The notes beneath the pieces were generated by a model. The model was not told the DNA's origin and made no database searches. It saw nothing but the letters and a program-made list of their open reading frames with translations. Shown here in pieces: positions 3,573-63,173 of a stretch of DNA of 64,000 bases (position 1 is its first letter; every line of letters starts with the position of its first letter). Position numbers and translations under genes: made by a program. The DNA lies in the NCBI GenBank assembly GCA_023623175.1, contig JAMNXU010000013.1, positions 3,933 through 67,932 on the forward strand. Direction: 5' to 3'. The DNA is from Bacillota bacterium. GTDB lineage: Bacteria > Bacillota > Clostridia > Acetivibrionales > JAMNXU01.

Positions 3573-3629
3573 GGGACAGGGGAACCGTCCCCTTGTCCCA
3601 GCCCTTGTCCCATTCGGGGGAACCGTCCC
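3573..3629. repeat. GGGACA..TGTCCC 27-nt palindromic repeat: one full unit plus a fragmentary second copy
   Basis: gggacaggggaaccgtccccttgtccc at 3573-3599, then cccttgtccc / gggggaaccgtccc fragments. Fills the 115-bp spacer immediately after the RND gene stop codon (3638). Confidence 0.85.
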
Positions 3630-3637
3630 ATTTTGTG

Positions 3638-6600
3638 TTACGCCTTCGCGGCTTTTTTGCGATAGAAGATGGCGTACAATACGGGTACGAGCAGCAACGT
3701 CAGGAACGTTGCATAGAGCAGCCCGGCTATGGTGGTAATGGCCATCGGCTGCACAAGCTCCGTGCCTTCGCCGGCGCCGAACGATGTGGTTATGAGCGCG
3801 AAGATCGTGGTCAGGGCCGTCATCAGGATAGGCCTGATACGGTCATTTCCCGTTTTTACAAGGGCTTCCTCCATGCTCATTCCTTCTTCCCTCATCTTGT
3901 TGGCATAATCCACGAAAACTATGCCGTTATTGACAACGACCCCCGCAAGAACTATCAATCCGACAAAGGCAACTATTCCAAGCGGCATTCCTGTAATTAT
4001 CAATCCAAGGAACCCGCCCGTAAAGGCCAGCGGTATCGTAAACATAACGATGAAGGGCGAAAGCAGCGACTGGAACTGGGCTACCATTATCAGGTAGACA
4101 AAGGCCACAGCCATGGCAAGCATAAGGCCAAGGTCGCTGAACGACTCCTCGATCATTTCATTTTCTCCGCTCATCGTTACCGAATACCCTTCGGGAACTT
4201 CGTAACTGTCAAGCTTCTCTTTAATTTCATTGCTGACAATACCTATGTTGTAACCCTCTTTAAGTCCGGCTCTTACGGAAACATATCTCTGCTGGTTCGT
4301 CCTGGAGATGGACGCAAAACCTTCTGCTTCCTTTATTGAAGCAATATTCTTCAGTTTCACCTTCGTCCCCTGGGCGTTTTCAATTTCCAGCTCCATGATG
4401 TCACTGCGCCTGTATTCCCTGGTATCGCCCGCATCTCTTACAAAGATATCATAGTCCCCGCCGTCCGTTGAAAGCGTCGTGACCGCAGATTCATCGGCCA
4501 GCAGCTTGTTAATCTCCATGTAAACCTGCGCAACCGTCAGTCCTGCCGCAATGCTTTTCTCCTTGTCGACCACGATCCTTATTTCCGGAGCGGTCTCCTC
4601 AATGCCTTCGGAAACCTCCGTCGTTCCGTCGACAGACGCAACAATTTTCGATACGTCCTTTGCAATTTTTTCAAGGGTATCAAACTCCCTGCCGCGGATT
4701 TCAACAACTATCCTTCCTCCGCTGAGCGCTGACAGGTCCATGCCGGCGCTGCTGACCGAGATTTCATAATCAGTGCTATCGGTTTTCTTCCTTATAAGCT
4801 CCGCCACTTCGTCGGTGGTCCTGGTCCTGTCCTTCTTAAGCCTCAGGTAGAACGATACGGAGTTTCCCGAACCTCCGGACCTCATTCCTCCGATGGCGCC
4901 GGCTCCGAACATTCCCCCGCCCATGGAAGCGCCTACCGTTTCTACCTCATCAATATCCATGAGGATGTTCATTATTTTATCCGCTGCATCGGCAGTTTCC
5001 TTGAATCCGGTACCCTGGGGCATCGTCAGGGACATCGTAACCTGTCCCGAATCAACCGGAGGGAACAGTTCCGTTCCCATCATTGCAATACCCGCAATGC
5101 TTCCTGCAAACAACGCAATTACGATCAGTATAACAACCCACTTATGCCTTAGAGAAAAGCGCAGAGTCCTGATATATCCCCTCTTCATTCTTTCAAAGAA
5201 GCGGTGCTCCTTTTTGGTTTCCCTGGCAAGAATCTTTGACGCTGCCATCGGAACCAGCGTTAACGCGATCAAAAGGCTTGCCAGCAGGGAAAAGGCAATC
5301 GTAAGACCCATGTCGGTGAAAATCTGCCTCGTAAAGCCCTCGGTAAAGACTATCGGGAGGAAGACCGCAATTGTTGTCAGGGTCGATGAAGTAATGGCCG
5401 CGGCCACCTGTTTCGTTCCCTCAATGGCTGCTTCAGTGGCGCTTTTCCCTTCATTTCTCATCCTGTAGATATTCTCTATAACCACAATGGAGTTGTCCAC
5501 GAGCATACCTACACCCAGAGCCAGGCCGCCCATGGAAATAATATTGAGCGTTATCTTTCCGAAATACATCATTACAAAAGCAGTAACAAGGCTTATGGGA
5601 ATCGCAAGTCCGATAACTATCATAGGCTTGACATCGCGCAGGAACAGTATCAGGATAAGTATCGCGAGCAAACCGCCGATGATTATGTTTTTTATGACTG
5701 AATCAATAACAATATCCACATATTCGCCCTGGTCCATGAGGGAAGCGATTTCCACGTCCGGGTTTTTGCCCATTATCTCATCAATCTTTTTTCTTACGCT
5801 TCTTGCCACGTCGGCCGTGTTGTAACCGGTCTGCTTCTGTATCGTAAGTGTAATAGCGTCATTTCCGTTGACTTTTGAATACATGTTGCCCGTATCGGCA
5901 AACAGTTCCACATCGGCCACGTCCTGCAAAACAACGGGATCCATTCCCGGAACGGGCAGCTTTAAAATCGGCAGGGATTTGAGTTCTTCGAGATCCCTGA
6001 TTTTATCTCCCGTTCTTATTAAGTAGTCAACCTCGCCTTCGCTGATGTAACCGGCCGGCATGCTGAAATTCTGGCCTTTAAGTATGCCGGAAATCATATC
6101 CTTTGTAACTTTTATCTCAGGTATCTGCGCAGCCGGAACCCGGGACATCGAACCTGCCTGGGCAGCTGAACCTGCCTGCGATGCCTGGCCCGCCTGTGCT
6201 GCCATATCCGCTCCCGCCGGGACATTTCCTGCCGGAAGGCCCTGGGCTGCCGCCATTTGCGCCATAAGCGCCTGTTTTATCTTCTGGTTGACTTCATTTA
6301 TTTTCTTTTCGTTCAAAGTTACTATCACCTGGTTATCCACGAGCCCCGACGCAGAAACAGCCGCAACACCTTCCACGCTCTCCAGTTCGGGGATGATGCT
6401 CTTTTCAAGGAAGTCTGAAGACTTACTTATTTCCTGCCCCTTTACCGCGGCGGAAAGCACCATTATCGGCATCATATCAGGATTTATCTTCATAATTATC
6501 GGTGAACCTGCCTGTTCAGGCAGCATGGATTCTATCATGTCGAGGCTTTCCCTCATCTCAATTACCGCCGAGTCCATGTTTGTGTTTCCGCTGAACTCAA

Positions 6601-6874
6601 GAATTACCAGGGACATGTGTTCCCTGGAAATTGAACGCACTTCCTTTATGTTGCTGATGGAAGCCATCGTCTGCTCTATAGGCCTTGTAACGGCCATCTC
6701 GACCTGTTCCGGGCTTGCGCCTGGATAGGAAGTGACTATCACCGTATAGGGAAGATTAATGCTGGGAAGCAAATCCGTTGACATGTTCATGAAAGAAACT
6801 ACGCCGAGAATTATTATTAAAATTACTGCAACTACTACTGTATAGGGTTTTCTGACACTGAAATCGGCTAACAT
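3638..6874 (-). CDS. RND-superfamily efflux transporter permease (AcrB/SwrC-like)
   Basis: 1078 aa with 12-TM architecture and two large extracytoplasmic loops. AcrB-family motifs include GGLALGVGMLVDNSIVVIENI. AAGGAG RBS. No membrane-fusion or outer-membrane partner gene is adjacent. Confidence 0.85.
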   Translation of the reverse strand: MLADFSVRKPYTVVVAVILIIILGVVSFMNMSTDLLPSINLPYTVIVTSYPGASPEQVEMAVTRPIEQTMASISNIKEVRSISREHMSLVILEFSGNTNMDSAVIEMRESLDMIESMLPEQAGSPIIMKINPDMMPIMVLSAAVKGQEISKSSDFLEKSIIPELESVEGVAAVSASGLVDNQVIVTLNEKKINEVNQKIKQALMAQMAAAQGLPAGNVPAGADMAAQAGQASQAGSAAQAGSMSRVPAAQIPEIKVTKDMISGILKGQNFSMPAGYISEGEVDYLIRTGDKIRDLEELKSLPILKLPVPGMDPVVLQDVADVELFADTGNMYSKVNGNDAITLTIQKQTGYNTADVARSVRKKIDEIMGKNPDVEIASLMDQGEYVDIVIDSVIKNIIIGGLLAILILILFLRDVKPMIVIGLAIPISLVTAFVMMYFGKITLNIISMGGLALGVGMLVDNSIVVIENIYRMRNEGKSATEAAIEGTKQVAAAITSSTLTTIAVFLPIVFTEGFTRQIFTDMGLTIAFSLLASLLIALTLVPMAASKILARETKKEHRFFERMKRGYIRTLRFSLRHKWVVILIVIALFAGSIAGIAMMGTELFPPVDSGQVTMSLTMPQGTGFKETADAADKIMNILMDIDEVETVGASMGGGMFGAGAIGGMRSGGSGNSVSFYLRLKKDRTRTTDEVAELIRKKTDSTDYEISVSSAGMDLSALSGGRIVVEIRGREFDTLEKIAKDVSKIVASVDGTTEVSEGIEETAPEIRIVVDKEKSIAAGLTVAQVYMEINKLLADESAVTTLSTDGGDYDIFVRDAGDTREYRRSDIMELEIENAQGTKVKLKNIASIKEAEGFASISRTNQQRYVSVRAGLKEGYNIGIVSNEIKEKLDSYEVPEGYSVTMSGENEMIEESFSDLGLMLAMAVAFVYLIMVAQFQSLLSPFIVMFTIPLAFTGGFLGLIITGMPLGIVAFVGLIVLAGVVVNNGIVFVDYANKMREEGMSMEEALVKTGNDRIRPILMTALTTIFALITTSFGAGEGTELVQPMAITTIAGLLYATFLTLLLVPVLYAIFYRKKAAKA

Positions 6875-13484: not shown

Positions 13485-13505
13485 CAAAAAAAGACCTTCC
13501 GGTCT
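13485..13505 (-). terminator. Terminator-like hairpin of the purine riboswitch expression platform
   Basis: The minus strand reads AGACC-ggaa-GGTCT followed by TTTTTTT, directly 3' of the aptamer. The stem is short (5 GC-rich bp plus an A-U extension), so the call is tentative. Confidence 0.4.
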
Positions 13506-13510
13506 GTTTA

Positions 13511-13578
13511 TCTTGTAGTCTCTAAATTTACGGTTTAGAGGTAGAAACTGGCTTACCAATTAAAGCCATTATACAAGA
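13511..13578 (-). promoter_or_regulatory. Purine riboswitch aptamer (guanine/hypoxanthine type)
   Basis: Minus-strand RNA is UCUUGUA-UAAU-GGCUUUAAUUGGUAAGCC-AGUUUCUACC-UCUAAACCGUAAAUUUAGAG-ACUACAAGA. This gives P1/P2/P3 with the conserved J2/3 AGUUUCUACC, L3 CCGUAAAU, and a C at the specificity position in J3/1. Located upstream of purL-purF. Confidence 0.85.
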
Positions 13579-13641
13579 TTATTTATTTTTATTCAATTTA
13601 CTTTTACATAATAACATAAAGCACAACATCATGCAACCCAT

Positions 13642-13698
13642 GGGACAAGGGGACGGCATGGGACAAGGGTGGGACACGGGGTCGGTTCCCCTGTCCCC
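13642..13698. repeat. GGGACA..TGTCCC repeat locus (two truncated units plus one full unit)
   Basis: gggacaaggggacgg, gggacaaggg, and gggacacggggtcggttcccctgtcccc. Confidence 0.8.
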
Positions 13699-18901: not shown

Positions 18902-19468
18902 TTAAAATTTAAATATTACCCCTATCACCGCGGCAACGGCAATATACACGATCGGATGCCTGTTCCATTTTAGTATCGCAAAAAGCATCGCCGCAAACAG
19001 CAATATCATTTTTAAATCTAACAAATCAACAAGCTTGCCCGTGTCAACAAATTTCTGGATATCTACCAGGGCCACTTTCGCCACCTCGAAACCGGCCGCC
19101 GCGATAAGTCCCGTAACCGCAGGTCTCAGCCCGCTGAAGGCCGATTTGACAATGGTGTTTTCATGGAATTTCATAAAATAATGGGCCAGGATAATCACTA
19201 TTATAAGCGACGGCATGCAAACACTCACCGAAGCAAGAACGGAACCCAAAACGCCGGCGGTTTTAAATCCCACGAATGTAGCCATGTTGATACCAATGGG
19301 ACCGGGCGTGGATTCGGAAATGGCTATCATGTCAATAAACTGCTGTGCCGTAAGCCATCCGTGTTTTGTAACGATCTCGTCCTGGAGCAGCGGAAGCATT
19401 GACAATCCGCCGCCGTAGGAAAACAACCCGATTTTAAAAAATGTAATCATCAGTTTCAGAAAAATCAT
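18902..19468 (-). CDS. chrA: Chromate transporter family protein (second half of a split ChrA pair)
   Basis: 188 aa. FKIGLFSYGGGLSMLPLL motif. 4-nt overlap with the upstream partner. Confidence 0.85.
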   Translation of the reverse strand: MIFLKLMITFFKIGLFSYGGGLSMLPLLQDEIVTKHGWLTAQQFIDMIAISESTPGPIGINMATFVGFKTAGVLGSVLASVSVCMPSLIIVIILAHYFMKFHENTIVKSAFSGLRPAVTGLIAAAGFEVAKVALVDIQKFVDTGKLVDLLDLKMILLFAAMLFAILKWNRHPIVYIAVAAVIGVIFKF

Positions 19469-20004
19469 TTGTTCCTAACCCCCGCCCTGTTTATTGCAAT
19501 ACCTGCCGCAGCGGCACCAAGTATGATCCATATGGGTGATATGTCCAGGAATGCCGAAATGCAAAACGCCAGTATCGCAAGGATAATCCCGTACCAGCCG
19601 CGCACTGATTTCTTTGCCATTTTTATAACGGAACTGACAATCAGTGCCACAACCGCCGCGGTTATTCCGCTAAAAGCGCTTCCCACAACGGGGATGTCCC
19701 TGAATTTCATGAAAAACGCGGCAATTGTCATGATGATCAAGAGCGACGGTGTGACCATGCCGGCGGTGGCCGCGACTGCGCCGGGGATTTTCTTTATCTT
19801 GTAACCTATAAACGTTGCCGTATTGATCGCTATGATTCCCGGCACGGACTGGCCCAGCGCGTAGTAATCCAGTATTTCTTCATCGGTTGTCCACTTCCTG
19901 GATACCATCTCCCTCTGGAGCAGGGGCAGCATGGCGTAGCCTCCCCCGAACGTGAATGCGCCGATTTTGAAAAAAGTCGAATATAATACCCACAAAACCT
20001 TCAT
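19465..20004 (-). CDS. chrA: Chromate transporter family protein (first half of a split ChrA pair)
   Basis: 179 aa. FKIGAFTFGGGYAMLPLLQRE motif. Confidence 0.85.
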   Translation of the reverse strand: MKVLWVLYSTFFKIGAFTFGGGYAMLPLLQREMVSRKWTTDEEILDYYALGQSVPGIIAINTATFIGYKIKKIPGAVAATAGMVTPSLLIIMTIAAFFMKFRDIPVVGSAFSGITAAVVALIVSSVIKMAKKSVRGWYGIILAILAFCISAFLDISPIWIILGAAAAGIAINRAGVRNK

Positions 20005-20169
20005 TCATACACTTCCTTCGAGTCGTTGTTCAAACACTTAAAAAAGTATAACAAACACACGGGACGCATTCAAGGCAGTTAATGGGTAGCTTACTGGTTG
20101 TACTTGTAAACTATAAACGAAATAAATCCCCCGGTTTAGGCATATTCGCTTAAAAACCGGGGGAGCAGG

Positions 20170-20275
20170 CATTATCAACAGGATTGCAGCATTGTCAACA
20201 CGAATTGCAGCATTGTCAACAGAAATTCTAACATAATCAGCAGTAATTGCAGTACATTATCAACGGTAATCGCAG
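20170..20275. repeat. Five degenerate ~21-nt tandem repeats abutting a gene's 3' end
   Basis: cattatcaacaggattgcag / cattgtcaacacgaattgcag / cattgtcaacagaaattctaa / cataatcagcagtaattgcag / tacattatcaacggtaatcgcag. These are followed by catcaatcaaaatcttcc, which contains the stop codon of 20285..22057. Confidence 0.75.
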
Positions 20276-20284
20276 GCTCGCGCA

Positions 20285-22057
20285 TCAATCAAAATCTTCC
20301 ATGTAGCCATCGAGCCCTTCGGTTGATTCCCCGTGGTATTCCAGTTCATACTTTGACAGAAGCTTCTTCGCCCTGTATTTTGACAGGTTAAACGACTGCC
20401 AGGGTTCAGACCTGTCCAGCCCCTCCTTTTTCCTGTAGAGACAATCCTCGGTGACCCTTGACACCTTCTCATCGCCATTTTCCATCAGTTTGACCAGTTC
20501 CGGCACTGCATCCCATGAAAGGCGCGACAGGTAATGCATGTCAATTTTGCCCGTATCGTAATACCTGTTTATATTATTCCTTGCAATTATCACATCGATG
20601 TTGATGTAGTTGATAATTACAAATGCCGCAATTGCCGTTATAATATACGGCCTGAGCAGGCGCACGCTTTCCCTCCAGATGCGGTACAGCGTTATTATGA
20701 ACAGCACGAGCAGGAAAACCATGAAAGCGTGGGTCAGCAGCCTCAGGTACGTGTAGCCGTACGCTTCCTCATACAGCGACATCCTGAAATGAGCTGAAAA
20801 CAGCATCACACCCGTATTGAAAACCAGCAGCGAAAACAGGACCCTTGCAGCCATGTTCACCGTCCCGGCGCCTTTTCCGGTGCCGTGCAGGAACACCAGC
20901 AGCAGGCTGAAATTTATCACCGTAACCGCTACAAGCTCGAAGAAGCCTCTGCGCGCATATTCCGAATAGGTGAATCCCTCAGGCAGGCCAATACTCAGGC
21001 TTCCGAACAAATATGAAAACTGGATGAACGTAAACAGCAGGTAAATAAGGTTGATAACGCAGAATACCGTCACAGTGATAACGGGATCCCATTTTTTCAT
21101 GTAACCGCCTTCCGGTTTGCCGTTACGTCCGTCGGCGCCGGGAGCGCCTTCTCCGGATACGCCGGGAACAGCAGTGTCCGGGCCGGCAGATACGCCTACA
21201 TCGCCAATCCAGTCAAATCCCACGATATTGTTTTTCTGGTACAGCATGCTCCACATGTAGCTGAATGCCAGCAATGCAATAACCAGGGCAACAAATATGT
21301 GGGAAATGTATCTGTCCAGCGCGATTTTTCTCAGAAGCTCCGGTATTTCTCCGAGAAAACTCTCAAATACAATGTCCGCCGAGGTCAGGAGGGGAATTGT
21401 AACCAGCAGGATGGGCACCGATACCAGGATACCTATCAGTACCTTGCCAAGGGTATTGTACCTGTCCCCTTTCATTTTGCTGCGAATCAATTTTGAAACG
21501 AGAGCAAAGGGTTTTCCGACAAAGGCAAGCGGCCTGTAGACAAACCCGATTATTAGGTCATACAGTACTCCCGGGGTATACCATTCGTATCTCGCGCTGT
21601 CGCTTACAAGCGTCGTCTGCAGCACTACGAGCACGGGTATGGCCAGGAAGTTCAGCACCCTGAATATCTCATTGGAAAAAAGCAGGTATGTCAGCGACAG
21701 CAGAAGCACCGGGACGCTCAGCGCCCAGCCGAAATCGGGCTTTACTTTAAGCCTGTCCCGGAGATTCAATTTGAATATTCCATAAAAAGCGACTACAAAA
21801 ATGGGATAGGAAACTCCAAGGGGCTTGCCGTTAAAAAGCACGTCAAACAGGATCCCCAGCACCAGCGCTGACAAAAGCAGGCAGACGTTTTTCCTGTTGC
21901 ATTGAATTTCGCCGGGCTTACCCTGCACGCCGTTTCCGCCGTGTTCATTACCTGTGTTCTGTACTTTGCCTGCGTCGTTACCTGAAACCCTGTCACCCAT
22001 CCTCCTGCTGTCCGAGCCCCCGTCAGCCAAATTCCTGTTATCAGTGTAATAGCTCAT
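20285..22057 (-). CDS. Large polytopic membrane protein (DUF4153/DUF4173-like)
   Basis: 590 aa with a G/N-rich cytoplasmic N-terminus, more than 10 predicted TM helices and a soluble C-terminal tail. 4-nt overlap with the upstream HTH gene. Confidence 0.55.
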   Translation of the reverse strand: MSYYTDNRNLADGGSDSRRMGDRVSGNDAGKVQNTGNEHGGNGVQGKPGEIQCNRKNVCLLLSALVLGILFDVLFNGKPLGVSYPIFVVAFYGIFKLNLRDRLKVKPDFGWALSVPVLLLSLTYLLFSNEIFRVLNFLAIPVLVVLQTTLVSDSARYEWYTPGVLYDLIIGFVYRPLAFVGKPFALVSKLIRSKMKGDRYNTLGKVLIGILVSVPILLVTIPLLTSADIVFESFLGEIPELLRKIALDRYISHIFVALVIALLAFSYMWSMLYQKNNIVGFDWIGDVGVSAGPDTAVPGVSGEGAPGADGRNGKPEGGYMKKWDPVITVTVFCVINLIYLLFTFIQFSYLFGSLSIGLPEGFTYSEYARRGFFELVAVTVINFSLLLVFLHGTGKGAGTVNMAARVLFSLLVFNTGVMLFSAHFRMSLYEEAYGYTYLRLLTHAFMVFLLVLFIITLYRIWRESVRLLRPYIITAIAAFVIINYINIDVIIARNNINRYYDTGKIDMHYLSRLSWDAVPELVKLMENGDEKVSRVTEDCLYRKKEGLDRSEPWQSFNLSKYRAKKLLSKYELEYHGESTEGLDGYMEDFD

Positions 22058-27898: not shown

Positions 27899-27933
27899 GG
27901 GACACGGGGACACGGGGACGGTTCTCTTGTCCC
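27899..27933. repeat. GGGACA..TGTCCC repeat unit with an internal 8-nt duplication
   Basis: gggacacggggacacggggacggttctcttgtccc, beginning 5 nt after the mgtC stop. Confidence 0.85.
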
Positions 27934-29522: not shown

Positions 29523-29644
29523 GTGGCAGCGGAATGCGACGTATGCACCGCAAATCCCGGCATAACTGCTGCCATCCTGGGATTTTTCGTCCAGCGGCAA
29601 CTTCCCGTCCGACTGACACTTAACGCGCATACATCTACTCTGCC
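29523..29644 (-). promoter_or_regulatory. THF (tetrahydrofolate) riboswitch
   Basis: Minus-strand RNA is GGCAGAGUAGAUGUAUGCGCGUUAAGUGUCAGUCGGACGGGAAGUUGCCGCUGGACGAAAAAUCCC...GCGGUGCAUACGUCGCAUUCCGCUGCC. It matches the conserved GAGUAG..GCGUUAAGUG..GGGA..ACGA..GCGGUG..GCAUxCCGCU blocks of the folT motif and lies upstream of folT. Confidence 0.8.
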
Positions 29645-45730: not shown

Positions 45731-45969
45731 CTACCCTGATATTAAGAACATCAACCGTATGTCTGTATACGACGCACAATAAAACTGGAAATGTCTATGA
45801 AATTATTATATTTAATATTTTTCGCGTGGTAAATGTGTATTAGTTACTATATTTTTACTTCCTGATACGGATTTTATTGTATAAATTGTACAAAAATATC
45901 CTCAAAAACAGAAATATAATCCTTCGCACTGAATTGGAAACAGAAAAACTATCCCGGTCATCCGCCGCT

Positions 45970-46154
45970 TTGAATTTAGAACAAAGGAATTTTTTTCATG
46001 TCCTGCTGCCCTGAATTTGTGACACACAAACCGTCCACGTATCCCCATGTGTACCACACCCTGAATTTGGGACAAAGGAACCGTCCCCGTGTCCCACTTT
46101 GAAAGAACCGTCCCCGTGTCCCACTTTGAGACAGAGGAACCGTCCCCGTGTCCC
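45970..46154. repeat. Tandem array of five GGGACA-family units in the 'aaccgtcccc' orientation
   Basis: The units show increasing decay toward the 5' side: cctgaatttgggacaaaggaaccgtccccgtgtccc, ctttgaaagaaccgtccccgtgtccc and ctttgagacagaggaaccgtccccgtgtccc, plus degenerate cctgaatttgtgacacacaaaccgtccacgtatcccc and ttgaatttagaacaaaggaattttt.. Confidence 0.85.
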
Positions 46155-46165: not shown

Positions 46166-46193
46166 AAAAAAACTTGGGGTATTCCCCCAAGTT
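46166..46193 (-). terminator. Rho-independent terminator downstream of beta-helix paralog 3
   Basis: Minus strand: AACTTGGGG-gaata-CCCCAAGTT followed by TTTTTTT. Confidence 0.7.
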
Positions 46194-46241
46194 TAATATA
46201 TAGAAGCTTGCTTGAATCGATAAAAGGCTGCTCTTGTTTTT

Positions 46242-47384
46242 TTAATCATTAAGTATCATATTGTCCTCGACCTTTGCAGCCGTTGCGCCGTCCCTTGCCA
46301 CAATTTTACCGTTTGTCCTGTTACCGGTGATTACGACGCCGGTAGTATCGGGCCAGCGGTATTCGATTGAGTTGGGATAGCCGGCCCCCGTGCGGCACTC
46401 GTTGCCTTCAATCACGGTATTCGGCGCGTTTTCTGCGGCTATGCTCACATCCCTGTTCGTCTCCACCCTGTTGTTGCGAATTACGGAGTCGGGACAGATA
46501 GTCCCGGTTCCCATGCCTACCATTATGCCTCTTTCACAGTTGGTTATCGTATTGCCTTCTATGAGAATGCCCGAAGAATTGTTCCAGAAATGTATCGCTG
46601 GTTCAGTCATATCCCCGCCGGGATTTACAATATCCTTTATTACATTATTCCTGACTGTCCAGTTTCTGCAGCGATGGCCGTCAATGGCGCAGGTATAATA
46701 TCCCGGGGCTTTGCCGGCGCTGTATTCAAATATGCAGTCCTCGATCAGGCCGTCGTCGGAATATATCTCAACATCCTCGGCGCCCCTGTAGGCCGAAACC
46801 TTTAACATCTGCTCGTATGTGTCCATGAAGCGCACATTGCGGACCACTATGCCGTCGGCATCCACTTCGCCGGCCACCTGGATCGCATGATACCGTACAT
46901 TTTTAAGCGTCATGTTTTCACAGGTAAAATTGTCTGCCCTGACCAGGAAAATATGCGTTACATTGGCCGTTTCAGACATGGCGTCGCCCGTGAGGATAAC
47001 CTTGTCCCTGCTCTCTTTCGATTCTCCCCTTATCGTAATGTTGTCGGCCTCAATAATAAAACCGCCAATATATATGGAATCCAGGTCATATGTACCGTTT
47101 GCCAGGACAATCTCCACGTTTCCGCCTTCCCTGTTGGCCTTTTCAATGGCTTCCATGAGCTCTTCGACTTTGCTGACACGAACAACGGGTTTTGTCGAGT
47201 AATGTTCAGGTTTTACCGGTGTATCCATGGCAGCCTCCCCATTTTTAGAATCTCCCGAAGTATTGCCGAAAATTCCGTCAAGCTTTCCGTTTAGCCCCAA
47301 TACAACTGCGGTAATAACAACCGCCACCACGACCAGCGCAATACCCGCATAAATCAGGTATTTCTTTGAATTCTTCCCGCTCAA
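46242..47384 (-). CDS. Membrane-anchored right-handed beta-helix protein (paralog 3)
   Basis: N-terminal single TM helix (YLIYAGIALVVVAVVITAVVLGL) instead of a cleavable signal peptide. The core shares RNVRFMDTYEQMLKVSA, NWTVRN, TEPAIHFWN, YPNSIEYRWP and RDGATA. Probable TTG start with an AAAGGAG RBS. Confidence 0.6.
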   Translation of the reverse strand: MSGKNSKKYLIYAGIALVVVAVVITAVVLGLNGKLDGIFGNTSGDSKNGEAAMDTPVKPEHYSTKPVVRVSKVEELMEAIEKANREGGNVEIVLANGTYDLDSIYIGGFIIEADNITIRGESKESRDKVILTGDAMSETANVTHIFLVRADNFTCENMTLKNVRYHAIQVAGEVDADGIVVRNVRFMDTYEQMLKVSAYRGAEDVEIYSDDGLIEDCIFEYSAGKAPGYYTCAIDGHRCRNWTVRNNVIKDIVNPGGDMTEPAIHFWNNSSGILIEGNTITNCERGIMVGMGTGTICPDSVIRNNRVETNRDVSIAAENAPNTVIEGNECRTGAGYPNSIEYRWPDTTGVVITGNRTNGKIVARDGATAAKVEDNMILND

Positions 47385-47502
47385 AACAGACCGCTCCTTT
47401 CAACTGCAGAATTAATCCCCGATAATATTTACATAATACCATTATACATAAATTCTCACCTGTAATTAATAATATTCAAAGTCCTATATTCGAACCGCTT
47501 TT

Positions 47503-47583
47503 GTTCCGGTGTCTGCATCCAGTCAATAAGCTTCATGTCGGGATCATCGACGCGGTAAACAATTTCGAGATTACCGGTTTCCA
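47503..47583 (-). pseudogene. ~80-nt remnant of a third solute-binding lipoprotein paralog
   Basis: The minus strand encodes GNLEIVYRVDDPDMKLIDWMQTPEQKR. This matches GDLEIVYRTDDPDIKLLDWKQTPEYKK (44134..45396) and IELVYRPDDPAIKLMDWKQTPEYRN (42533..44086). Nothing recognisable lies on either side. Confidence 0.7.
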
Positions 47584-47604
47584 GAAGGGGCTTTGTATCC
47601 CCCT

Positions 47605-47661
47605 GGGACACGGGGACGGTTCTTCTATCCCCCTGGGACACGGGGACGGTTCTTCTGTCCC
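47605..47661. repeat. Two tandem GGGACA-family units in the 'ggggacggtt' orientation
   Basis: gggacacggggacggttcttctatcccc and gggacacggggacggttcttctgtccc, each preceded by ccccct. Confidence 0.9.
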
Positions 47662-47716
47662 AAAACAAAACCAGGGGAGATTCTTATTCATGTTGACCGG
47701 CATAAGAACCTCCCCC
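47662..47716 (-). terminator. Probable rho-independent terminator of the hyd maturation operon
   Basis: Minus strand: AGGGGAGGTTCTTAT, 14-nt loop, ATAAGAATCTCCCCT (15 bp, one mismatch), followed by GGTTTTGTTTTGG. Confidence 0.6.
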
Positions 47717-47770
47717 TGCAGATTTTCGTTTGTATTACTTACAGCACACTACAGATCACCGTTTTGCGAA

Positions 47771-47940
47771 GCGACAAGAAAACAATCCCTGTGTCATATT
47801 CTGCTATGAATTTGGGACAAAAGAACCGCTCCCTTGTCCCGTACCCTGCTACGAATTTGGGACAAGAGAACCGTCCCCGTGTCCCAAATTGGGACAAGAG
47901 AACCGTCCCCGTGTCCCAAGGGAACCGTGTACCAGGTCCC
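47771..47940. repeat. Array of 3 full plus 2 degenerate GGGACA-family units, orientation opposite to 47605-47661
   Basis: gggacaaaagaaccgctcccttgtccc (47814-47840) and gggacaagagaaccgtccccgtgtccc (47859-47885 and 47891-47917). Two units are preceded by ctgctaYgaattt. The array abuts the hydG stop codon (47942). Confidence 0.9.
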
Positions 47941-47941
47941 G

Positions 47942-49369
47942 TTAAAACCTCAAATCCCGCTCGCCGTTGCGAATTCGCTGCAGATATTCAATTGCGCGCT
48001 GTCTCTGCCTTTCATTGGGAACATTCTGTATCTCGCTGTCTATAAGCCTGCGGCCCATTTCCAACAGTTCATCGTCGGCATAATCCTGCAGATATTCCTC
48101 AAAGGTCAAAAGCGCATTGGGCAGGCAGCAGTTTTTAATCTGCCCCGATTTGGCCAGAGCCATGAACCGGTCGCCCGTCCTGCCTTCCCTGTAACAGGCG
48201 GTGCAATAACTCGGAATGTACCCGTCCCTTACAAGGCTCTTGAGCACATCAATGGGCTTCCTGTGGTCAGCAAGGTAAAACTGGGGCTTTTCATCCACAT
48301 CTTCATCTTCAGCGTAACTTTTCTTTGCGTAACCGCCGACGCCCACGCAGGAACCGGCGCTCATCTGGGAAATGCCAATATCCAGCAGTTCATTGCGGAA
48401 CTCGACTCTTTCCCTCGTTGACAGGATCATTCCCGTATAAGGTACGGCAAGGCGGATGGTAGCCACCACCTTTTTGAAATCCCTGTCGTTGACGAGATAC
48501 GGGAAAGACGAATAATCCACACCCTCCGCCGGCAAGAGCCTCGGGATTGAAATCGTGTGCGGACCGACGCCGGCGACAGCCTCAAGATGCTCCGCGTGCA
48601 TCAGCAAGGCGACCACTTCGTAGTGGTAATCGTAAAGCCCGAACAGCGGACCGATCCCCACGTCGTCAATTCCTCCTCCCAGCATGGCCCTGTCCATGGC
48701 CTCGGTATGCCACTCGTAGTCAGCCTTTGGACCGGAATGCATCGCAAGGTATGTGGGCTTGTGATAGGTTTCCTGGAACAGGGTGTATGTGCCGATCTTG
48801 GCTTCCTTGAGCTTTCTGTAATTTTCCTCCGTGGTTGCCGCAATATCTATGTTAATTCTGCGAATCGAGCCGTTTTCAAACTTCTCGCTGTAAATGGTAT
48901 TTATGCACTCAAGAATGTATTCAATCGGGCAGTTTTGGTCGTCTTCGCCGGCTTCCAGCAGGAGCCTCTTATGCCCCATTCGCTCCAGCGCACGGACTTC
49001 TTCCCTCAACTCCTCCTGGGACAGCCGGTGTCTCGCAATCTTGTTTGAACACTTGTAACCGCAATATTTGCAGTTGTTCACGCAGTAATTCGAAAGATAC
49101 AGCGGGGCGAAAATGACGATCCTCTTTCCGTAAATTGCCTCCTTGACTTCTTTTGCGATTTTGAACATCAGCCCGAGAGTTTCGTCGTCGTCCACTTCCA
49201 GCAGGACCGCAGCTTCGCGGTGAGTGAGGCCCTTGTAATTTCTTGCCTTTTCCAGGATCCTGTAAACTTCCGCCTTGTTTTTAACGAGCTTTTTCGCCTC
49301 ACTTATTGATTCCAGCACCTCGCCGTCATCAATATACTCGTTGCAGTCCATGGATTTTACGTTATACAT
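47942..49369 (-). CDS. hydG: [FeFe]-hydrogenase maturase HydG (radical SAM tyrosine lyase)
   Basis: 475 aa. Radical-SAM motif CVNNCKYCGY, and the C-terminal auxiliary-cluster motif CTACYREGRTGDRFMALAKSGQIKNCCLPNA. Confidence 0.92.
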   Translation of the reverse strand: MYNVKSMDCNEYIDDGEVLESISEAKKLVKNKAEVYRILEKARNYKGLTHREAAVLLEVDDDETLGLMFKIAKEVKEAIYGKRIVIFAPLYLSNYCVNNCKYCGYKCSNKIARHRLSQEELREEVRALERMGHKRLLLEAGEDDQNCPIEYILECINTIYSEKFENGSIRRINIDIAATTEENYRKLKEAKIGTYTLFQETYHKPTYLAMHSGPKADYEWHTEAMDRAMLGGGIDDVGIGPLFGLYDYHYEVVALLMHAEHLEAVAGVGPHTISIPRLLPAEGVDYSSFPYLVNDRDFKKVVATIRLAVPYTGMILSTRERVEFRNELLDIGISQMSAGSCVGVGGYAKKSYAEDEDVDEKPQFYLADHRKPIDVLKSLVRDGYIPSYCTACYREGRTGDRFMALAKSGQIKNCCLPNALLTFEEYLQDYADDELLEMGRRLIDSEIQNVPNERQRQRAIEYLQRIRNGERDLRF

Positions 49370-49457
49370 TTTATTACCCCTTTCAAAAATAAATTTGATT
49401 GCAATTTAACAGAATAAATCCGTTTGTTCTTTTGAATAATTCAATACCGGTCACTAA

Positions 49458-49537
49458 GGCTGACTCCGATTATTTCAGGCTAATCCCGGTTATTTCAGGC
49501 TGATTCCGGTTATTCCAGCCCGAGTCCGGTTATTTCA
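49458..49537. repeat. Four 20-nt tandem units copying the hydF 3' end, stop codon included
   Basis: ggctgactccgattatttca / ggctaatcccggttatttca / ggctgattccggttattcca / gcccgagtccggttatttca, then ggctgatttt (coding). The fourth unit contains the real hydF stop (49530-49532). Confidence 0.85.
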
Positions 49538-50780
49538 GGCTGATTTTATCCAAAATGCCGGACAGGTAGGCAATCGCGACGCCGTAATTGGTCATTGGCA
49601 CTTTCTGCCTCGATGCCCTGTCTATTCGTGAAAGCATGTACCTGCGGTTAAACATGCACGCTCCGCAATGGATGATCAAATCATATGATGACAGGTCCTC
49701 GGGGAAATCATTGCCGCTCACCACGTCCACAGTAAGTCCCGGTCCTACCTTGCGGCGCAGCATGGCGGGAATCTTTTCCCTGCCTATGTCCTCGCTGAGC
49801 GGCGCATGGGTGCAGGCTTCAGCTATAAGAACCCGCGAATTTTCCGTAAGGCTTTCAATGGCAGCGGCGCTTTCCGCGTAGTAATCAATATCGCCCTTGT
49901 ATCCGGCATACAGCACCGAGAAGGATGTAAGCCTGCTTTCGGCGGGTTTCTTTTCATACACGGTTTTAAAAACCTGGGAGTCCGTTATTATGACTGCCGG
50001 CGGCTCTTTCAGCGCGCTCAATGCTTCGTCGATCTTTTCCGCCGTTGTGCATATCACCATGCATTTTCTGTCCAGCAACTCCCTGATCGTCTGGACCTGC
50101 GGAAGAATCAGCCTGCCCTTTGGCGCCTGTATGTCCTGGGGCATGACGAGCAACACGGTATCGCCGTCGCTGACCACATTGCCCGTTATTAACGGGTTCT
50201 CATAATCTTCGGGCAGGTTCTCCAGTATAGCCTTGTAAATCCGGGAAACGACATCCTTATCCCGCGCGCTGACCGCGACAGGTCTGATGCCCGTACCCTT
50301 CTCAACAAGATCCTGCGCTGCTTTTACTTCGCTTGAACCATTCAGCATGTCGCACTTGTTCAACACCGTGATTACGGGAATATTCATCCTTCTAAATTCG
50401 GCGATCCATTTTTTCTCAATATCGAAAACGGAACTCTCCATACCGGTATCAGGCTTATTGCTAACTGGAACCAGTTTGCTCCCGTCGAATACTACGAGCG
50501 CAACATCGGTTTTAAGCGCAGCTTCCCGCGTCTTTTTCATCCTGAGCCCGCCTATCTCGCCTTCATCATCAAACCCGGCCGTGTCAATGAGCACGCACGG
50601 TCCTATCGGATGGATTTCCATCGACTTGTACACGGGATCAGTGGTTGTGCCGGCAATATCAGAAACCAGCGCCGTTTCATGCCCGGTGATCGCGTTGATC
50701 AGCGAAGACTTCCCGCTGTTTCTTCTGCCGAAAATGCCTATGTGCAACCGGTTGCTCCTGGGTGTGTTATTCAGACTCAT
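49530..50780 (-). CDS. hydF: [FeFe]-hydrogenase maturation GTPase HydF
   Basis: P-loop GRRNSGKSS, TTDPV, and the C-terminal cluster motif CTHAP...HCGACMFNR. Confidence 0.92.
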   Translation of the reverse strand: MSLNNTPRSNRLHIGIFGRRNSGKSSLINAITGHETALVSDIAGTTTDPVYKSMEIHPIGPCVLIDTAGFDDEGEIGGLRMKKTREAALKTDVALVVFDGSKLVPVSNKPDTGMESSVFDIEKKWIAEFRRMNIPVITVLNKCDMLNGSSEVKAAQDLVEKGTGIRPVAVSARDKDVVSRIYKAILENLPEDYENPLITGNVVSDGDTVLLVMPQDIQAPKGRLILPQVQTIRELLDRKCMVICTTAEKIDEALSALKEPPAVIITDSQVFKTVYEKKPAESRLTSFSVLYAGYKGDIDYYAESAAAIESLTENSRVLIAEACTHAPLSEDIGREKIPAMLRRKVGPGLTVDVVSGNDFPEDLSSYDLIIHCGACMFNRRYMLSRIDRASRQKVPMTNYGVAIAYLSGILDKISLK

Positions 50781-52959: not shown

Positions 52960-53317
52960 CTGTCCGGCCCTTAATTGATCTCTACATCTGTACTGTACTG
53001 TTCTGTTTTGTTTTTATTTGTTATTATCTGTTTTTATTTGTTATTATCTGTTTTTATTCAATTTGTTATCTTTCTTTTTTCTTTATCTATCCTCTTTTTC
53101 TTAATTTGTTATCTATCTTTTTTCTTTTCTTTATCTATTTCTTTTCCTTGACTATTTCTTTACTTTTTCTAATTCTTTTCTTTTTCTAATTCTCTTCTTT
53201 ATCTTTTCTTTTCTTTGACTATTTCTTCTCTTTACTATTTCTTTTCTTTTACTATTTCTTTTTCCATTTCTTTTCTTAATCCTTTTTTTACCTGTTTTTC
53301 TTCATTTATTTCTTTTT
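52960..53317. repeat. ~360-nt purine-rich (minus strand) low-complexity tract of degenerate repeats after the ntpD stop
   Basis: The minus strand continues the ntpD end (aagatgaagaaaagaaataaataa) as gaaataaatgaagaaaaacagg.., aagaaaagaaatggaaaaagaaatagtaaaagaaaagaaatagtaaagagaagaaatagtcaaagaaaag.. Stop codons occur in every frame. Confidence 0.75.
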
Positions 53318-53932
53318 TTATTTATTTCTTTTCTTCATCTTTTTGATCTTGAAAAAGTCCTCCCTTTCCTTTTCTTCGAGGACCTCCTCTATATATTTGA
53401 CTTGCTCCCTGTATCTCGGTATCAGTATATGCTGAAGCGCATTTGTTCTTTTACTTGTTTTTTCAATCTCCCGCGCCAGCTTAAAAATTGAATTTTCAAT
53501 TTCGGCCAGCTCATACAGTTTATACTTAACTTCGTTGAATTTCAGCCGCGCCTCATCCAGGGATGTATTGGTGTTGAAAAAGCCATAGGAAGGCTTTATT
53601 TCCTGCCTTTTATATTTAACCACGGGAATATCCACGCCCATGATGCTCTTTAACAGCACCTCGAAATTCTCATCATTGGGAATACTGTTGGTGATGTCGT
53701 CCACGTCCCTTATTCCCAGCGTGAGATTCGCTACCTGGAGCGCATTGTACGCTTCCTCGAATATCCCGTATATCTCATTTTGAATATTCTTCGCCCTGTC
53801 AACCATGTCCATCATTTCGCGGATGAGGACGTTCCTCTTTTTATCCAGGAGTTCATAGCCGCTCCTGGAAAGGGCAAGCGCGGTTTTGGCTTTTATAAGG
53901 TTGGCTTTTGTGGGCGCAGTCAGCTGAGACAT
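53318..53932 (-). CDS. ntpD: V-type ATPase subunit D
   Basis: 204 aa. MSQLTAPTKANLIKAKTALALSRSGYELLDKKRNVLIREMM is the canonical V/A-ATPase D N-terminus. Confidence 0.9.
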   Translation of the reverse strand: MSQLTAPTKANLIKAKTALALSRSGYELLDKKRNVLIREMMDMVDRAKNIQNEIYGIFEEAYNALQVANLTLGIRDVDDITNSIPNDENFEVLLKSIMGVDIPVVKYKRQEIKPSYGFFNTNTSLDEARLKFNEVKYKLYELAEIENSIFKLAREIEKTSKRTNALQHILIPRYREQVKYIEEVLEEKEREDFFKIKKMKKRNK

Positions 53933-54332
53933 TACTTATACACCTTGCTTCTGCAATTTGCTCAATTATACCTGTTCTTATATCTGTTTTATATTATCGT
54001 TTTATACAATTTTGATTTTATAAAATTTCTTTATGTTCATTTTTTATATAATCTGTTTTTCATATATAATCTGTTTTTCTTATATAATCTGCTTTTCTTT
54101 AAATAAACAATCTGCTTTTCCTCATATAATTCTTCATATAATTTGATTTTCTTTATATAATTCGCTTTTTTATATATTCTGCTTTTCTTTACATAATCCG
54201 TTTTTCTTGTTTTATATAATTTGTGTTTTTAGGGAGGCCGCTCTCTCCATATATTACATCATGTCCTGCACCATGGTTATATCCGTTTTTTGCATCTTTT
54301 TATCTTCATGTCTTGCATCGTGTTTTACCATT
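53933..54332. repeat. 400-nt untranslated spacer inside the V-ATPase operon, made of ~12 degenerate ~18-nt repeats
   Basis: Minus-strand units: aagaaaagcagaatatata, aaaaagcgaattatata, aagaaaatcaaattatatg, aggaaaagcagattgtttattta, aagaaaagcagattatata, agaaaaacagattatatat, gaaaaacagattatata. These resemble the ntpB end cagaagtattataaaggcaaacag. Confidence 0.75.
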
Positions 54333-63114: not shown

Positions 63115-63173
63115 GGGACACGGGGACGGTTCTCCTGTCCCAGGTTGGGACATGGGGACGGTTCTCTTGTCCC
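63115..63173. repeat. Two tandem GGGACA-family units 22 nt upstream of the hydrogenase start codon
   Basis: gggacacggggacggttctcctgtccc (63115-63141) and gggacatggggacggttctcttgtccc (63147-63173). Confidence 0.9.

Follow-up and report, generated by a model that had tools for sequence, protein, structure and literature searches.

A dispersed family of 27-nt REP-like hairpins in a Clostridia genome and its probable class-2 Y1 transposase partner

Short palindromic sequences that begin with GGGACA and end with TGTCCC recur between the genes of a 64-kb stretch of a Clostridia contig (64,000 nt; hereafter the window), and they raise the question as to what kind of element they are and how they came to be spread. 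A sequence-only reading of the window had described them as a REP/BIME-like family of about 20 units at seven loci, all intergenic and in both orientations.

The family itself is sound. The 27-nt unit GGGACAcGGGGACGGTTCyyyTGTCCC has 12 matches at ≤3 mismatches in the 64-kb window, compared to 0.00 in 100 dinucleotide-preserving shuffles, and its 11-nt core, GGGGACGGTTC, occurs exactly 11 times where ~0.03 occurrences are expected, showing that the repeats are not random; at ≤1 mismatch there are 13 cores, every one inside the seven loci. Inclusion of degenerate and partial units seen by eye brings the total to ~20, in agreement with the earlier count. Three units at two distant loci (27907, 47859, and 47891) are identical to the consensus, the unit at 63115 has no mismatch to the degenerate pattern, and those at 47635 and 63147 each have one. 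ORF and Pfam-supported gene calls place all seven loci in intergenic DNA, and both orientations are indeed represented, with the G-rich form (G-form) on the minus strand at three loci (A, D, and F) and on the plus strand at B, C, E, and G. The units and the features beside them are as follows.

Array A, 3573-3629, G-form on the minus strand
3573..3599, minus strand: full unit GGGACAAGGGGACGGTTCCCCTGTCCC, with an entirely Watson-Crick inner stem and an ssDNA fold of -10.8 kcal/mol
3600..3629, minus strand: two partial units, GGGACAAGGGCT and (T)GGGACGGTTCCCCCGAAT
Array B, 13642-13698, G-form on the plus strand
13642..13670, plus strand: two partial 5' units, GGGACAAGGGGACGGCAT and GGGACAAGGGT
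13671..13697, plus strand: full unit with the core variant GGGGTCGGTTC
Array C, 27899-27933, G-form on the plus strand
27899..27906, plus strand: 8-nt partial duplication GGGACACG, beginning 4 nt past the mgtC stop codon
27907..27933, plus strand: full unit with 0 mismatches to the consensus
Array D, 45927/45970-46154, G-form on the minus strand
46128..46154, minus strand: unit 1, ~15 nt beyond the intrinsic terminator (46170-46194, minus strand) of gene 46242..47384
46096..46122, minus strand: unit 2, core intact and 3' arm gone
46069..46095, minus strand: unit 3, then spacer AAATTCAGGG (G-form orientation)
46019..46045, minus strand: unit 4, degenerate, with core GTGGACGGTTT
45927..45995, minus strand: one or two strongly decayed composite units in which only an AAATTCA-type spacer motif is recognizable
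Array E, 47605-47661, G-form on the plus strand
47605..47631, plus strand: unit 1
47635..47661, plus strand: unit 2, directly adjacent to the hairpin of the hydG terminator, on its U-tract side
47668..47718, minus strand: probable hydG/hydEFG terminator between arrays F and E, a long hairpin with a U-tract and not a unit
Array F, 47771-47940, G-form on the minus strand
47771..47797, minus strand: unit 4, strongly degenerate
47814..47840, minus strand: unit 3, with core GGGAGCGGTTC, then spacer AAATTCATAG (G-form orientation)
47859..47885, minus strand: unit 2, identical to the consensus, then spacer AAATTCGTAG (G-form orientation)
47891..47917, minus strand: unit 1, identical to the consensus
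47918..47940, minus strand: partial or degenerate unit, ending 1 nt away from the stop codon of hydG (47942-47944)
Array G, 63115-63173, G-form on the plus strand
63115..63141, plus strand: unit 1, upstream of the [FeFe]-hydrogenase large-subunit gene, which starts at 63195
63147..63173, plus strand: unit 2

The arrays run head to tail with a period of 27-32 nt, or of 45-59 nt where a spacer is included, and carry partial or decayed copies at one end, much as the sequence-only reading had it. Growth at one fixed array end was considered and rejected, since arrays D and F decay toward the 3' side of the G-form, and the partial units of A, B, and C are on the 5' side. Unit-plus-spacer composites are common to arrays D and F, with the decayed composites of D (families D2 and D3) being 60-65% identical, and the 5' extension noted previously (CTGAATTT / CTACGAATTT) is real but restricted to these same two arrays. 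Direct tandems with partial units are structures that slippage alone could make, without a transposase.

The positions of the arrays relative to genes are more varied than had been claimed: the description of most loci as lying near a stop codon is overstated, as only three of the seven begin within ~2-10 nt of one, next to the RND pump gene, mgtC, and hydG. The end of array A is separated by 8 nt from the RND/AcrB stop codon (gene 3638..6874, minus strand), array B is ~107 nt past a stop codon with its full unit between a purine riboswitch (13496-13596) and an aminotransferase stop codon (13805), and array G is ~22 nt ahead of the [FeFe]-hydrogenase start codon. Arrays E and F face each other across ~110 nt, the sole facing pair in the window, and the hydG terminator hairpin between them folds at -24 kcal/mol (z = -3.3) and is followed by UUUUGUUUU. 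The 5' arm of this terminator, CAGGGGGAGGTTCTTAT, is core-like with two mismatches; chance alone would produce ~16 matches of this quality in the window, and we leave it out of the family. Seven loci are likewise too few to assert an orientation bias with respect to transcription or the replication strand.

A short (20-40 bp) imperfect palindrome in multiple extragenic copies is what is expected of a REP, and the 27-nt unit has all of these properties. No Rfam family was found on the repeats, either at gathering thresholds or in a permissive E-value search of the window, and literature text searches with the strings GGGACGGTTC and GAACCGTCCC gave unrelated primer matches only. We conclude that the repeats are real and are REP-like hairpin units, belonging to a known class of miniature mobile DNA rather than being a new kind of element.

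The motif is not confined to the window. A pattern scan of one genome per species identified at least 106 loci, with matches in Bacillota, Bacteroidota, Actinomycetota, Chloroflexota, and Armatimonadota. Chance alone is expected to give ~70 matches to a pattern of 17 specified bases in 596 Gb, and those without a closing arm in GC-rich coding DNA look like such chance matches; Streptomyces L019, L049, and L104, the archaeal L014, and also L040, L053, L081, and L091 are of this type and were not counted. Across genomes the unit consists of a variable 5-8-bp stem ending in CA, zero to two nucleotides (N0-2), the core GGGGACGGTTC, two to four pyrimidines (Y2-4), and TG followed by the complementary stem, which in the genome of the window is GGGACA/TGTCCC. 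Among the matches listed, there are 31 distinct stem types in 29 loci around this one core. The contiguous Watson-Crick stem averages 5.0 bp, compared to 2.56 ± 0.10 bp after exchange of arms among the loci (200 permutations, with a maximum of 2.81); the stem thus co-varies around an invariant core, indicating that the hairpin is under selection.

The variation is also asymmetric between the strands. In 110 aligned units, G9-G11 are essentially fixed, and a pyrimidine occupies positions 19, 20, and 21 in 109, 95, and 98 units, respectively; because C or T nearly always faces the G run, a complete hairpin can form only on the G-rich strand, through G·T or G·U wobble pairs. Folded as RNA, the G-form gives -14.4 kcal/mol and its complement -9.4 kcal/mol, and array F as G-form RNA reaches -73.8 kcal/mol (z = -7.9). 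The 5' tetranucleotide GT[AG]G is absent in the 110 aligned units and positions -6 to -2 have no conserved bases; position -1 is the sole biased position of the 5' flank, with T in 64%, and the 3' flank of the aligned units is T-rich across genomes.

The sequence-only reading had recommended looking for a RAYT-type gene, and such a family is present in other genomes. When ORFs were clustered over the at least 106 loci listed, a single recurrent neighbor emerged, a protein of ~250-270 aa found in L024, L025, L080, L085, L088, L095, and L096, and in L003 at a contig end; a unit directly adjoins its gene in 7-8 of the at least 106 loci. The protein matches PF01797 (Y1_Tnp; E = 3e-15 and 1e-10), one member reaches 80.8 bits with NF047646 ('REP-associated tyrosine transposase'; cut-off 80), the HuH and Y..NP motifs are invariant, and the best solved structure is that of E. 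coli TnpA_REP (4ER8). The repeats are strictly oriented, with the G-form 5' of the Y1 gene and its complement 0-10 nt past the stop codon at all six loci where both flanks can be read, and with the G-form first and the complement second in every one of the at least 16 close inverted pairs seen in other genomes. The sequence-only reading had named membership in a larger element, such as IS termini, as an outcome that would count against it, and this applies by half: elsewhere the units are inverted repeats around a transposase gene, but in the window they are solo, nonautonomous copies.

The association also holds when approached from the protein. Among 80 metagenome loci chosen by protein similarity alone, the upstream flank carries the core in G-form at 38/75 and in complementary form at 1/75, and the downstream flank carries the complementary form at 25/70 and the G-form at 7/70, where the chance level is ~0.003 per flank. 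About half of these loci have no core, and it is absent also from a Collinsella homologue that is 31% identical, from which we conclude that the association is true of a sub-clade and not of the whole protein family. The RAYT subclass concerned is large, comprising no fewer than 7,310 protein clusters at E ≤ 1e-20. Homologues of the protein occur in 29 plasmid records and one phage record, and the unit pattern has two matches in 2.9 million viral contigs; these numbers do not support phages as the main vector between phyla.

The isolate Acetoanaerobium noterae DSL2 provides an example of a gene together with its repeats. Its Y1 gene is flanked by inverted units, and ~16 units are found within 40 kb; two distant 50-kb samples contain no copies. 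We therefore rejected genome-wide dispersal in A. noterae, where the units are local to the gene, and this clustering indicates that dispersal across a genome is not a given. No Y1 homologue was found within the 64-kb window (tblastn best E = 0.16).

How does this pairing compare with known systems? The canonical REP/REPIN-RAYT systems are those of Enterobacteria and Pseudomonas, reportedly described by Nunvar in 2010, Bertels and Rainey in 2011, and Ton-Hoang in 2012. The repeats described here are similarly short, extragenic, imperfect palindromes, clustered and often at gene 3' ends, and the Y1/HUH gene is flanked by inverted copies, as in a REPtron, with 4ER8 as its closest structural relative. 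They differ in having no 5' GT[AG]G guide tetranucleotide and in being common to several phyla, whereas REPs are usually species- or genus-specific; the protein is ~100 aa longer, and that of L025 has only 22% identity to E. coli RAYT b0228 (E = 2e-8 over 101 aa). In the window, the arrays form direct head-to-tail tandems rather than inverted doublets or alternating BIME mosaics. With these reservations, the REP/BIME-like reading is supported.

The closest known systems are the TIRYTs/TIRtrons (Di Nocera 2013), equated with TnpA_Y1 subclass 2.1, especially 2.1.2 (Quentin 2018), the latter being a provisional placement drawn from identity and description; RAYT Group 1 (Bertels 2017) is probably also close. 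TIRYT genes are described with inverted repeats on both sides together with dispersed families 'organized as REPs in dimers or clusters' (PMC3733652), and subclass 2.1 proteins are long, with an HTH C-terminus and a patchy distribution fitting horizontal transfer (PMC6006769). Several of these features recur here: the Y1 protein is long with a C-terminal extension that may be of HTH type, its gene is bracketed by inverted repeats, it is patchy across phyla, and the flanking repeat occurs as dispersed singles, dimers, and clusters (at the seven window loci, in A. noterae, and at several loci per MAG or genome). With TIRYT 'dau 2153' the L025 protein shares 34% identity over 147 aa (E = 6e-33), and because this exceeds its identity to b0228, its catalytic domain groups with the TIRYTs and not with the E. 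coli-type RAYTs. The Y1 proteins carry the shared N-terminal signature MPR..R....YH...RGN as well as A[YF]CLM.NH.H, and the C-terminal 60-70 aa give sub-threshold HTH similarities only (HTH_23 in 3/5, HTH_28 in 1/5, and HTH_38 at E = 2e-4). The G-rich TIRYT motif GGGGWSAS, or GGGG[AT][CG]A[CG], is matched exactly by GGGGACA[CG] in some genomes and with one mismatch by GGGGACGG, and the 5' arm in the window is TGGGACAC.

There are nonetheless clear departures from the TIRYTs. The exact motif is a feature of some variants only, each repeat is a compact 27-nt hairpin that folds on itself around an invariant 11-nt apical core and not just a long terminal inverted repeat, and the C-terminal tail is unlike that of the TIRYTs listed in 2013, which ends in GRPRK. 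Quentin et al. report no REP-like sequences beside subclass 2.1 genes (PMC6006769). RAYT Group 1 has the widest range, spanning 21 bacterial classes including Clostridia, is occasionally plasmid-borne, as are, rarely, the homologues here, and has moderately abundant flanking 16-mers and signs of horizontal transfer, although the repeat sequence and structure are not described (PMC5581495). IS200/IS605 elements share with this system a Y1 HUH enzyme, which in their case recognizes subterminal ssDNA hairpins (PMC6006769). They have distinct left and right ends, a class-1 TnpA of ~130-150 aa, often tnpB, and multiply as whole elements, whereas here a single unit lies inverted on both sides of a class-2 gene (~260 aa) and only the units multiply.

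Taken together, we consider it probable that the units are nonautonomous REP-like hairpins whose autonomous partner is a class-2 Y1 (HUH) transposase of the TIRYT / TnpA_Y1 subclass 2.1 type. That partner is likely ~250-270 aa long and made up of a catalytic Y1 domain followed by an HTH-like tail at the C-terminus. Mobilization of the units by the transposase is inferred by analogy: TnpA_REP cleaves and rejoins REPs, the E. coli enzyme being the only one for which biochemistry on single-stranded repeats is known (PMC6006769), and the mechanism that we propose draws on hairpin recognition by the IS200/IS605 Y1 HUH enzymes (PMC6006769). The transposase would recognize the folded G-rich strand as ssDNA, as IS200/IS605 TnpA and E. 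coli TnpA_REP do, with the core as the protein-contact element and the stem perhaps serving as a scaffold only. Cleavage and rejoining at the foot of the hairpin would carry units into further intergenic sites, many of them beside terminators or at the 3' ends of genes, where arrays may then enlarge by slippage or unequal exchange as older copies decay; the 8-nt GGGAC repeat internal to the unit and the composites common to D and F are the reasons for proposing this form of growth. The cognate gene would be elsewhere in the genome of the window, or lost.

A different explanation is that the units are mainly RNA elements selected by the host, acting as mRNA stabilizers, terminators, or modulators of translation termination, with the link to the transposase being incidental or historical. 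The stability of the G-form hairpin, per unit and across array F, is in keeping with this, as are the T-rich, terminator-like 3' flank across genomes, the presence of the G-form on the sense strand of the neighboring gene at 5/7 loci, and the three arrays that start 1-8 nt past a stop codon. Liang, Rudd and Deutscher are said to have found in 2015 that E. coli REPs near stop codons lower translation. However, two of the seven loci, B and E, run antisense to the transcription around them. The window units have no U-tract and are followed by A-rich or mixed sequence, and terminators already precede arrays D and E and follow array F, which argues that the units are not terminators here; they do not have the form of intrinsic terminators, and better ones are present at 46170-46194 and 47668-47718. 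A host RNA function also does not account for Y1 genes in many phyla being bracketed in a strict orientation, or for an 11-nt core that is invariant between phyla while the stems vary, and we regard this explanation as unlikely. A side effect of mobile units on RNA is possible: transcripts containing the G-form after hydG, mgtC, and the RND gene would carry a predicted RNA hairpin of -14 kcal/mol per unit, which could alter 3'-end stability or translation termination.

That the window copies are dead relics, with the transposase gone and the arrays grown by replication slippage and unequal recombination, is doubtful but somewhat more plausible. It would fit the lack of a Y1 gene within 64 kb, the many partial units (such as GGGACACG and GGGACAAGGGT) and an internal 8-nt repeat that favors slippage, and the decay gradients and shared D/F composites; yet consensus-identical units at two distant loci point to recent spread or continuing homogenization, the 64-kb stretch covers only a small part of a genome, and RAYT-type genes usually number one or two (PMC5581495). 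A domesticated Y1 protein binding GGGGACGGTTC as a duplex through its HTH tail, or another host protein doing so, in some chromosome-level function would explain an invariant core within a variable stem. The weak HTH similarity of the C-terminal region and the published case for RAYT domestication (PMC5581495; PMC8266576) are compatible with this, but the HTH matches are all sub-threshold in Pfam, the covarying stem and the restriction to pyrimidines opposite the G run indicate a folded single strand, and the invariant catalytic HuH and Y residues suggest that nuclease/ligase activity is retained; we find a duplex site quite improbable. Other short-repeat systems are scarcely credible. CRISPR arrays, type III toxin-antitoxin RNA repeats, and the termini of IS200/IS605-derived MITEs (PATEs) come to mind for hairpin-forming tandems of 27-32 nt, and Y1 transposases do also move IS200/IS605, but the gaps here are 0-5 nt or a repeated 18-nt spacer with no unique 25-40-nt spacers, there is no cas gene among the Pfam-scanned flanking genes, the loci are dispersed (seven of them) with no adjoining toxin gene, the protein is of class 2 (Y..NP, ~260 aa) and not a ~130-150-aa IS200 TnpA, no tnpB was noticed beside the loci in an unsystematic look, and Rfam has no match at the repeats.

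Returning to the transposase-partnered hairpins, we tentatively raise the possibility that they form a distinct REP class, defined by an invariant 11-nt apical core, GGGGACGGTTC, across five phyla, lineage-specific co-varying stems, and HTH-tailed class-2 Y1 partners. If so, recognition would be split, with the protein reading the core and the stem free to drift, and the DNA signal would be near-identical and far more conserved than the protein (31-37% identity); the hairpin and transposase would be a tractable, portable pair and a marker for cross-phylum transfer. The association ties a large and poorly characterized RAYT subclass to a concrete candidate hairpin substrate and offers an explanation for near-identical 27-mers in distant phyla, and the core-plus-stem design, backed by natural covariation, can be used directly to design in vitro binding and cleavage tests.

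Over 21 kb around the nearest hydG relative (87% identity) there is no unit, and the intergenic gap after its hydG is only ~80 nt, suggesting that presence of the repeat is lineage-specific. An empty-site comparison with the closest hydG relative (L107-L109) gave no clean insertion boundary, with other genes downstream. HydG of the window is 83-88% identical to homologues in MAGs, a 'Clostridiaceae bacterium,' and Defluviitalea. For annotation, the arrays mark gene 3' ends, and their RNA hairpins may change the expression of hydG, mgtC, and the RND pump; they also create spurious ORFs, such as the read-through frame at 47593..48045 that the sequence-only reading had pointed out and that is indeed present, and are best masked as REP-like repeats.

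The 27-nt hairpin repeats are a real, non-random family, and their REP-like interpretation is supported. The sequence at 47605-47940 agrees with its description in the sequence-only reading, whose consensus has 12 matches in the window at ≤3 mismatches, while 100 dinucleotide-preserving shuffles contain no match. Exact copies of the 11-nt core GGGGACGGTTC number 11 (∼0.03 expected) and are confined to the seven loci proposed there. The proposed total of ∼20 units includes degenerate and partial ones. ORF and Pfam evidence places all seven loci between genes, as had been suggested; the further claim that most arrays start within a few nucleotides of a stop codon holds for three loci and fails for the rest. 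The arrays are located as follows:

3573-3629, minus strand: array A, 3' of an AcrB-type RND gene
13642-13698, plus strand: array B, flanked by an aminotransferase gene and the purL purine riboswitch
27899-27933, plus strand: array C, 4 nt 3' of mgtC
45927-46154, minus strand: array D, ∼15 nt beyond a beta-helix protein gene's terminator
47605-47661, plus strand: array E, directly beyond the hairpin at 47668-47718
47771-47940, minus strand: array F, separating the hydG stop codon from the strong terminator hairpin at 47668-47718
63115-63173, plus strand: array G, ∼22 nt upstream of the start codon of an [FeFe]-hydrogenase gene

Tandem Repeats Finder and a repeat finder recovered the arrays with a period of 27 to 32 nt; arrays D and F also contain unit-plus-spacer composites of ∼45 to 59 nt, with the common spacer AAATTC(A/G)(G/T)(G/A)G. 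By mismatch search, three units from two loci reproduce the consensus without a change, and another three fit the degenerate pattern with ≤1 mismatch, which suggests recent activity or homogenisation. The hydG terminator hairpin (47668-47718, minus strand) folds at -24 kcal/mol, and the hydG region of a relative is without units. We note that the 5' arm of this hairpin, CAGGGGGAGGTTCTTAT, is like the repeat core plus pyrimidine tail, with two mismatches in 11; judged by sequence, the hairpin could have originated as an inverted doublet of the family that has since decayed, although chance alone predicts ∼16 core matches with two mismatches in the window. ORF 47456..47668 has a non-repeat part (47456-47600, minus strand) that lies between array E and the beta-helix gene; its translation, PLLETGNLEIVYRVDDPDMKLIDWMQTPEQKRFEYRTLNIINYR, has no match in a Pfam search, and the stretch has the look of a small gene or of a coding remnant.

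Scanning one genome per species with the pattern GGGACANGGGGACGGTTC (17 specified bases; ∼70 chance matches expected in 596 Gb) yielded at least 106 loci, some of which, in Streptomyces, in an archaeon and within coding sequence without a closing arm, are likely chance matches. Among the matches listed, the unit is strictly closed by its complementary arm at 64 loci, many more loci have long inverted pairs or arrays, and in 16/16 close inverted pairs the G-form (the G-rich strand) comes first, followed by its complement. The unit is not species-specific: both isolates and metagenome-assembled genomes (MAGs) contribute, and it is present in Lachnospiraceae, Oscillospiraceae, Peptococcaceae, Desulfitobacteriia and Syntrophaceticus, in isolates of Bacillus, Mesobacillus and Virgibacillus, in Prevotellaceae, Muribaculaceae and other Bacteroidales, and in Propionicimonas (Actinomycetota), Flexilinea (Chloroflexota) and one Armatimonadota MAG. 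The same ∼35 nt follow each of two units in a sheep-gut Clostridia MAG (L096, 6962-7210) and in Mesobacillus subterraneus (L102, 562-3644), where units may travel with adjacent DNA or sit beside paralogous genes. Three matches (L035, L060 at 6699, and L083) have no TGTCCC closure and run on as GGGGACGGTTCGA(A/G)ACC(A/G)CTGAA in a different, common context that includes the tRNA T-arm-like GGTTCGAAACC; this may be an unrelated conserved element sharing the 17-mer by chance.

When every ORF of the scan loci was clustered all-against-all, one protein family of ∼250 to 270 aa was found to recur directly beside the unit among the matches listed (L024, L025, L080, L085, L088, L095 and L096, with L003 at a contig end). 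These proteins are Y1 transposases (PF01797, E = 3e-15 and 1e-10); the Peptococcaceae member scores 80.8 bits with the NCBIfam "REP-associated tyrosine transposase" model (cut-off, 80), and the nearest solved structure is E. coli TnpA_REP (4ER8). The HuH (N-H-x-H) and Y..NP motifs are invariant among members only 31 to 37% identical, and HTH matches at the C terminus are all sub-threshold. At all six loci with both flanks readable, the G-form lies 40 to 130 nt 5' of the Y1 gene and the complementary form starts 0 to 10 nt past its stop codon, an oriented bracketing that is the REPtron/TIRtron arrangement. The orientation was tested independently on 80 metagenome loci picked by protein similarity only (32 to 56% identity), counting cores with ≤1 mismatch within 350 nt (chance ∼0.003 per flank): upstream, the core is in the G-form in 38/75 flanks and in the complementary form in 1/75, and downstream, it is in the complementary form in 25/70 and in the G-form in 7/70.

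Anchoring these protein-first loci on the core alone reveals arms that vary between loci and are complementary within a unit, with 31 distinct stem types in 29 loci (for example AGACA/TGTCT, GAGTCA/TGACTC, GGATCA/TGATCC and AACACA/TGTGTT). The contiguous Watson-Crick stem averages 5.0 bp, versus 2.56 ± 0.10 bp with 5' and 3' arms exchanged between loci (200 permutations; maximum, 2.81), and the architecture is [stem...CA]-N0-2-GGGGACGGTTC-Y2-4-[TG...stem'], with pyrimidines at 109/124 post-core spacer positions. In 110 GGGACA-stem units, G9-G11 are essentially fixed and positions 19, 20 and 21 are pyrimidines in 109, 95 and 98 units, respectively; variation between C and T at the bases facing these Gs preserves pairing (G-C or G·T/U) on the G-rich strand only. 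With RNA parameters the G-form folds completely, at -14.4 kcal/mol, and its complement reaches -9.4; DNA parameters leave G·T pairs out of account and give the outer 7-bp stem alone (∼-5.7 kcal/mol), and with them the CCCC variant at 3573 reaches -10.8 kcal/mol. Stem covariation, strand asymmetry and folding together indicate that selection sees the unit as folded single-stranded DNA or RNA, one of the two strands being the defined active one; this agrees with the substrate recognition that excerpts of Quentin 2018 (PMC6006769) describe for Y1/HUH enzymes of the IS200/IS605 type and for TnpA_REP.

A plausible mechanism is that the Y1 enzyme would bind the folded G-strand on single-stranded DNA, then cut and rejoin at the hairpin foot, and so spread the units; arrays would afterwards lengthen by slippage, to which the internal 8-nt GGGAC repeat of the unit lends itself, and as unit-plus-spacer composites are duplicated, with older copies decaying. 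In arrays A, C, D, F and G, whose G-form is the transcribed one, the units could act in RNA as stabiliser, terminator or translational brake, which is plausible as a side effect; a primary role of this kind leaves both the bracketing of Y1 genes and the antisense loci B and E unexplained, and the units are not the local terminators. A search for a Y1 partner gene within the 64-kb window found none, and we regard it as possible, if rather doubtful, that the arrays are a relic kept up by slippage after loss of the transposase. The anatomy argues against duplex binding by an HTH tail, and likewise against CRISPR, type III antitoxin repeats and IS200/IS605 PATEs.

[quoted passage not shown]" Those of Quentin 2018 equate TIRYTs with TnpA_Y1 subclass 2.1, whose long proteins carry a Bac_DnaA_C, HTH_23 or HTH_28-like domain at the C terminus and whose subgroup 2.1.2 is patchy across phyla, fitting horizontal transfer, and report that REP-like sequences were not found beside subclass 2.1 genes; in excerpts of Bertels 2017 (PMC5581495), Group 1 RAYTs are the widest-ranging, Clostridia included, with moderately abundant flanking 16-mers. 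The Y1 protein found here is, over its catalytic domain, 34% identical to TIRYT 'dau 2153' (E = 6e-33), against 22% to the E. coli RAYT, and the units lack the GTAG tag of canonical REPs. We therefore reject canonical GTAG-REPs or BIMEs and file the window repeats with the REP-like/TIR-repeat kind of TIRYT-type Y1 transposases; systems of this kind are known, and the present data add some detail that is new and testable. In the literature searched, with Di Nocera 2013 represented by text excerpts apart from its figures, we found neither the pairing of an invariant core with a freely varying stem nor the reach across phyla, so we do not claim either as undescribed.

The whole system is present in an isolate genome, that of Acetoanaerobium noterae DSL2, where AATCAnnAGGGACGGTTCTTTTTGATT units bracket a Y1 gene. 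There are ∼16 copies in the 40 kb around it (L190; NZ_CP154629.1, 401884-442645), dense within ∼20 kb of the gene, and no copies in two distant 50-kb samples (L191 and L192); the family is thus clustered near the Y1 gene in this genome, a pattern suggestive of spread over short distances. Although labelled a plasmid, the 2.63-Mb record has the size of a chromosome.

The window also contains other repeats and RNA elements. Purine (13496-13596, minus strand, 80.7 bits, upstream of purL/purF) and THF (29525-29644, minus strand, 80 bits) riboswitches are both well over Rfam gathering scores and consistent with a Bacillota/Clostridia origin. Approximately 4.4 direct repeats of 20 nt at 49457-49545, unrelated to the 27-nt family (CAGCCTGAAATAACCGGAAT on the minus, coding strand), run across the stop codon of hydF and the interval between hydF and hydG, and could be a protein- or RNA-binding array regulating hydG. 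Long T-rich tandem repeats (53007-53344 and 54040-54208; periods of 10, 17, 18 and 33 nt, ≤13 copies) occupy a GC-poor region (38.5%) surrounding the gene for V-type ATPase subunit D (53318..53932, minus strand). Finally, five tandem copies of the 21-nt GCATTATCAACAGTAATTGCA at 20169-20275, between minus-strand ORFs 19465..20004 and 20285..22057, could form an operator-like array.
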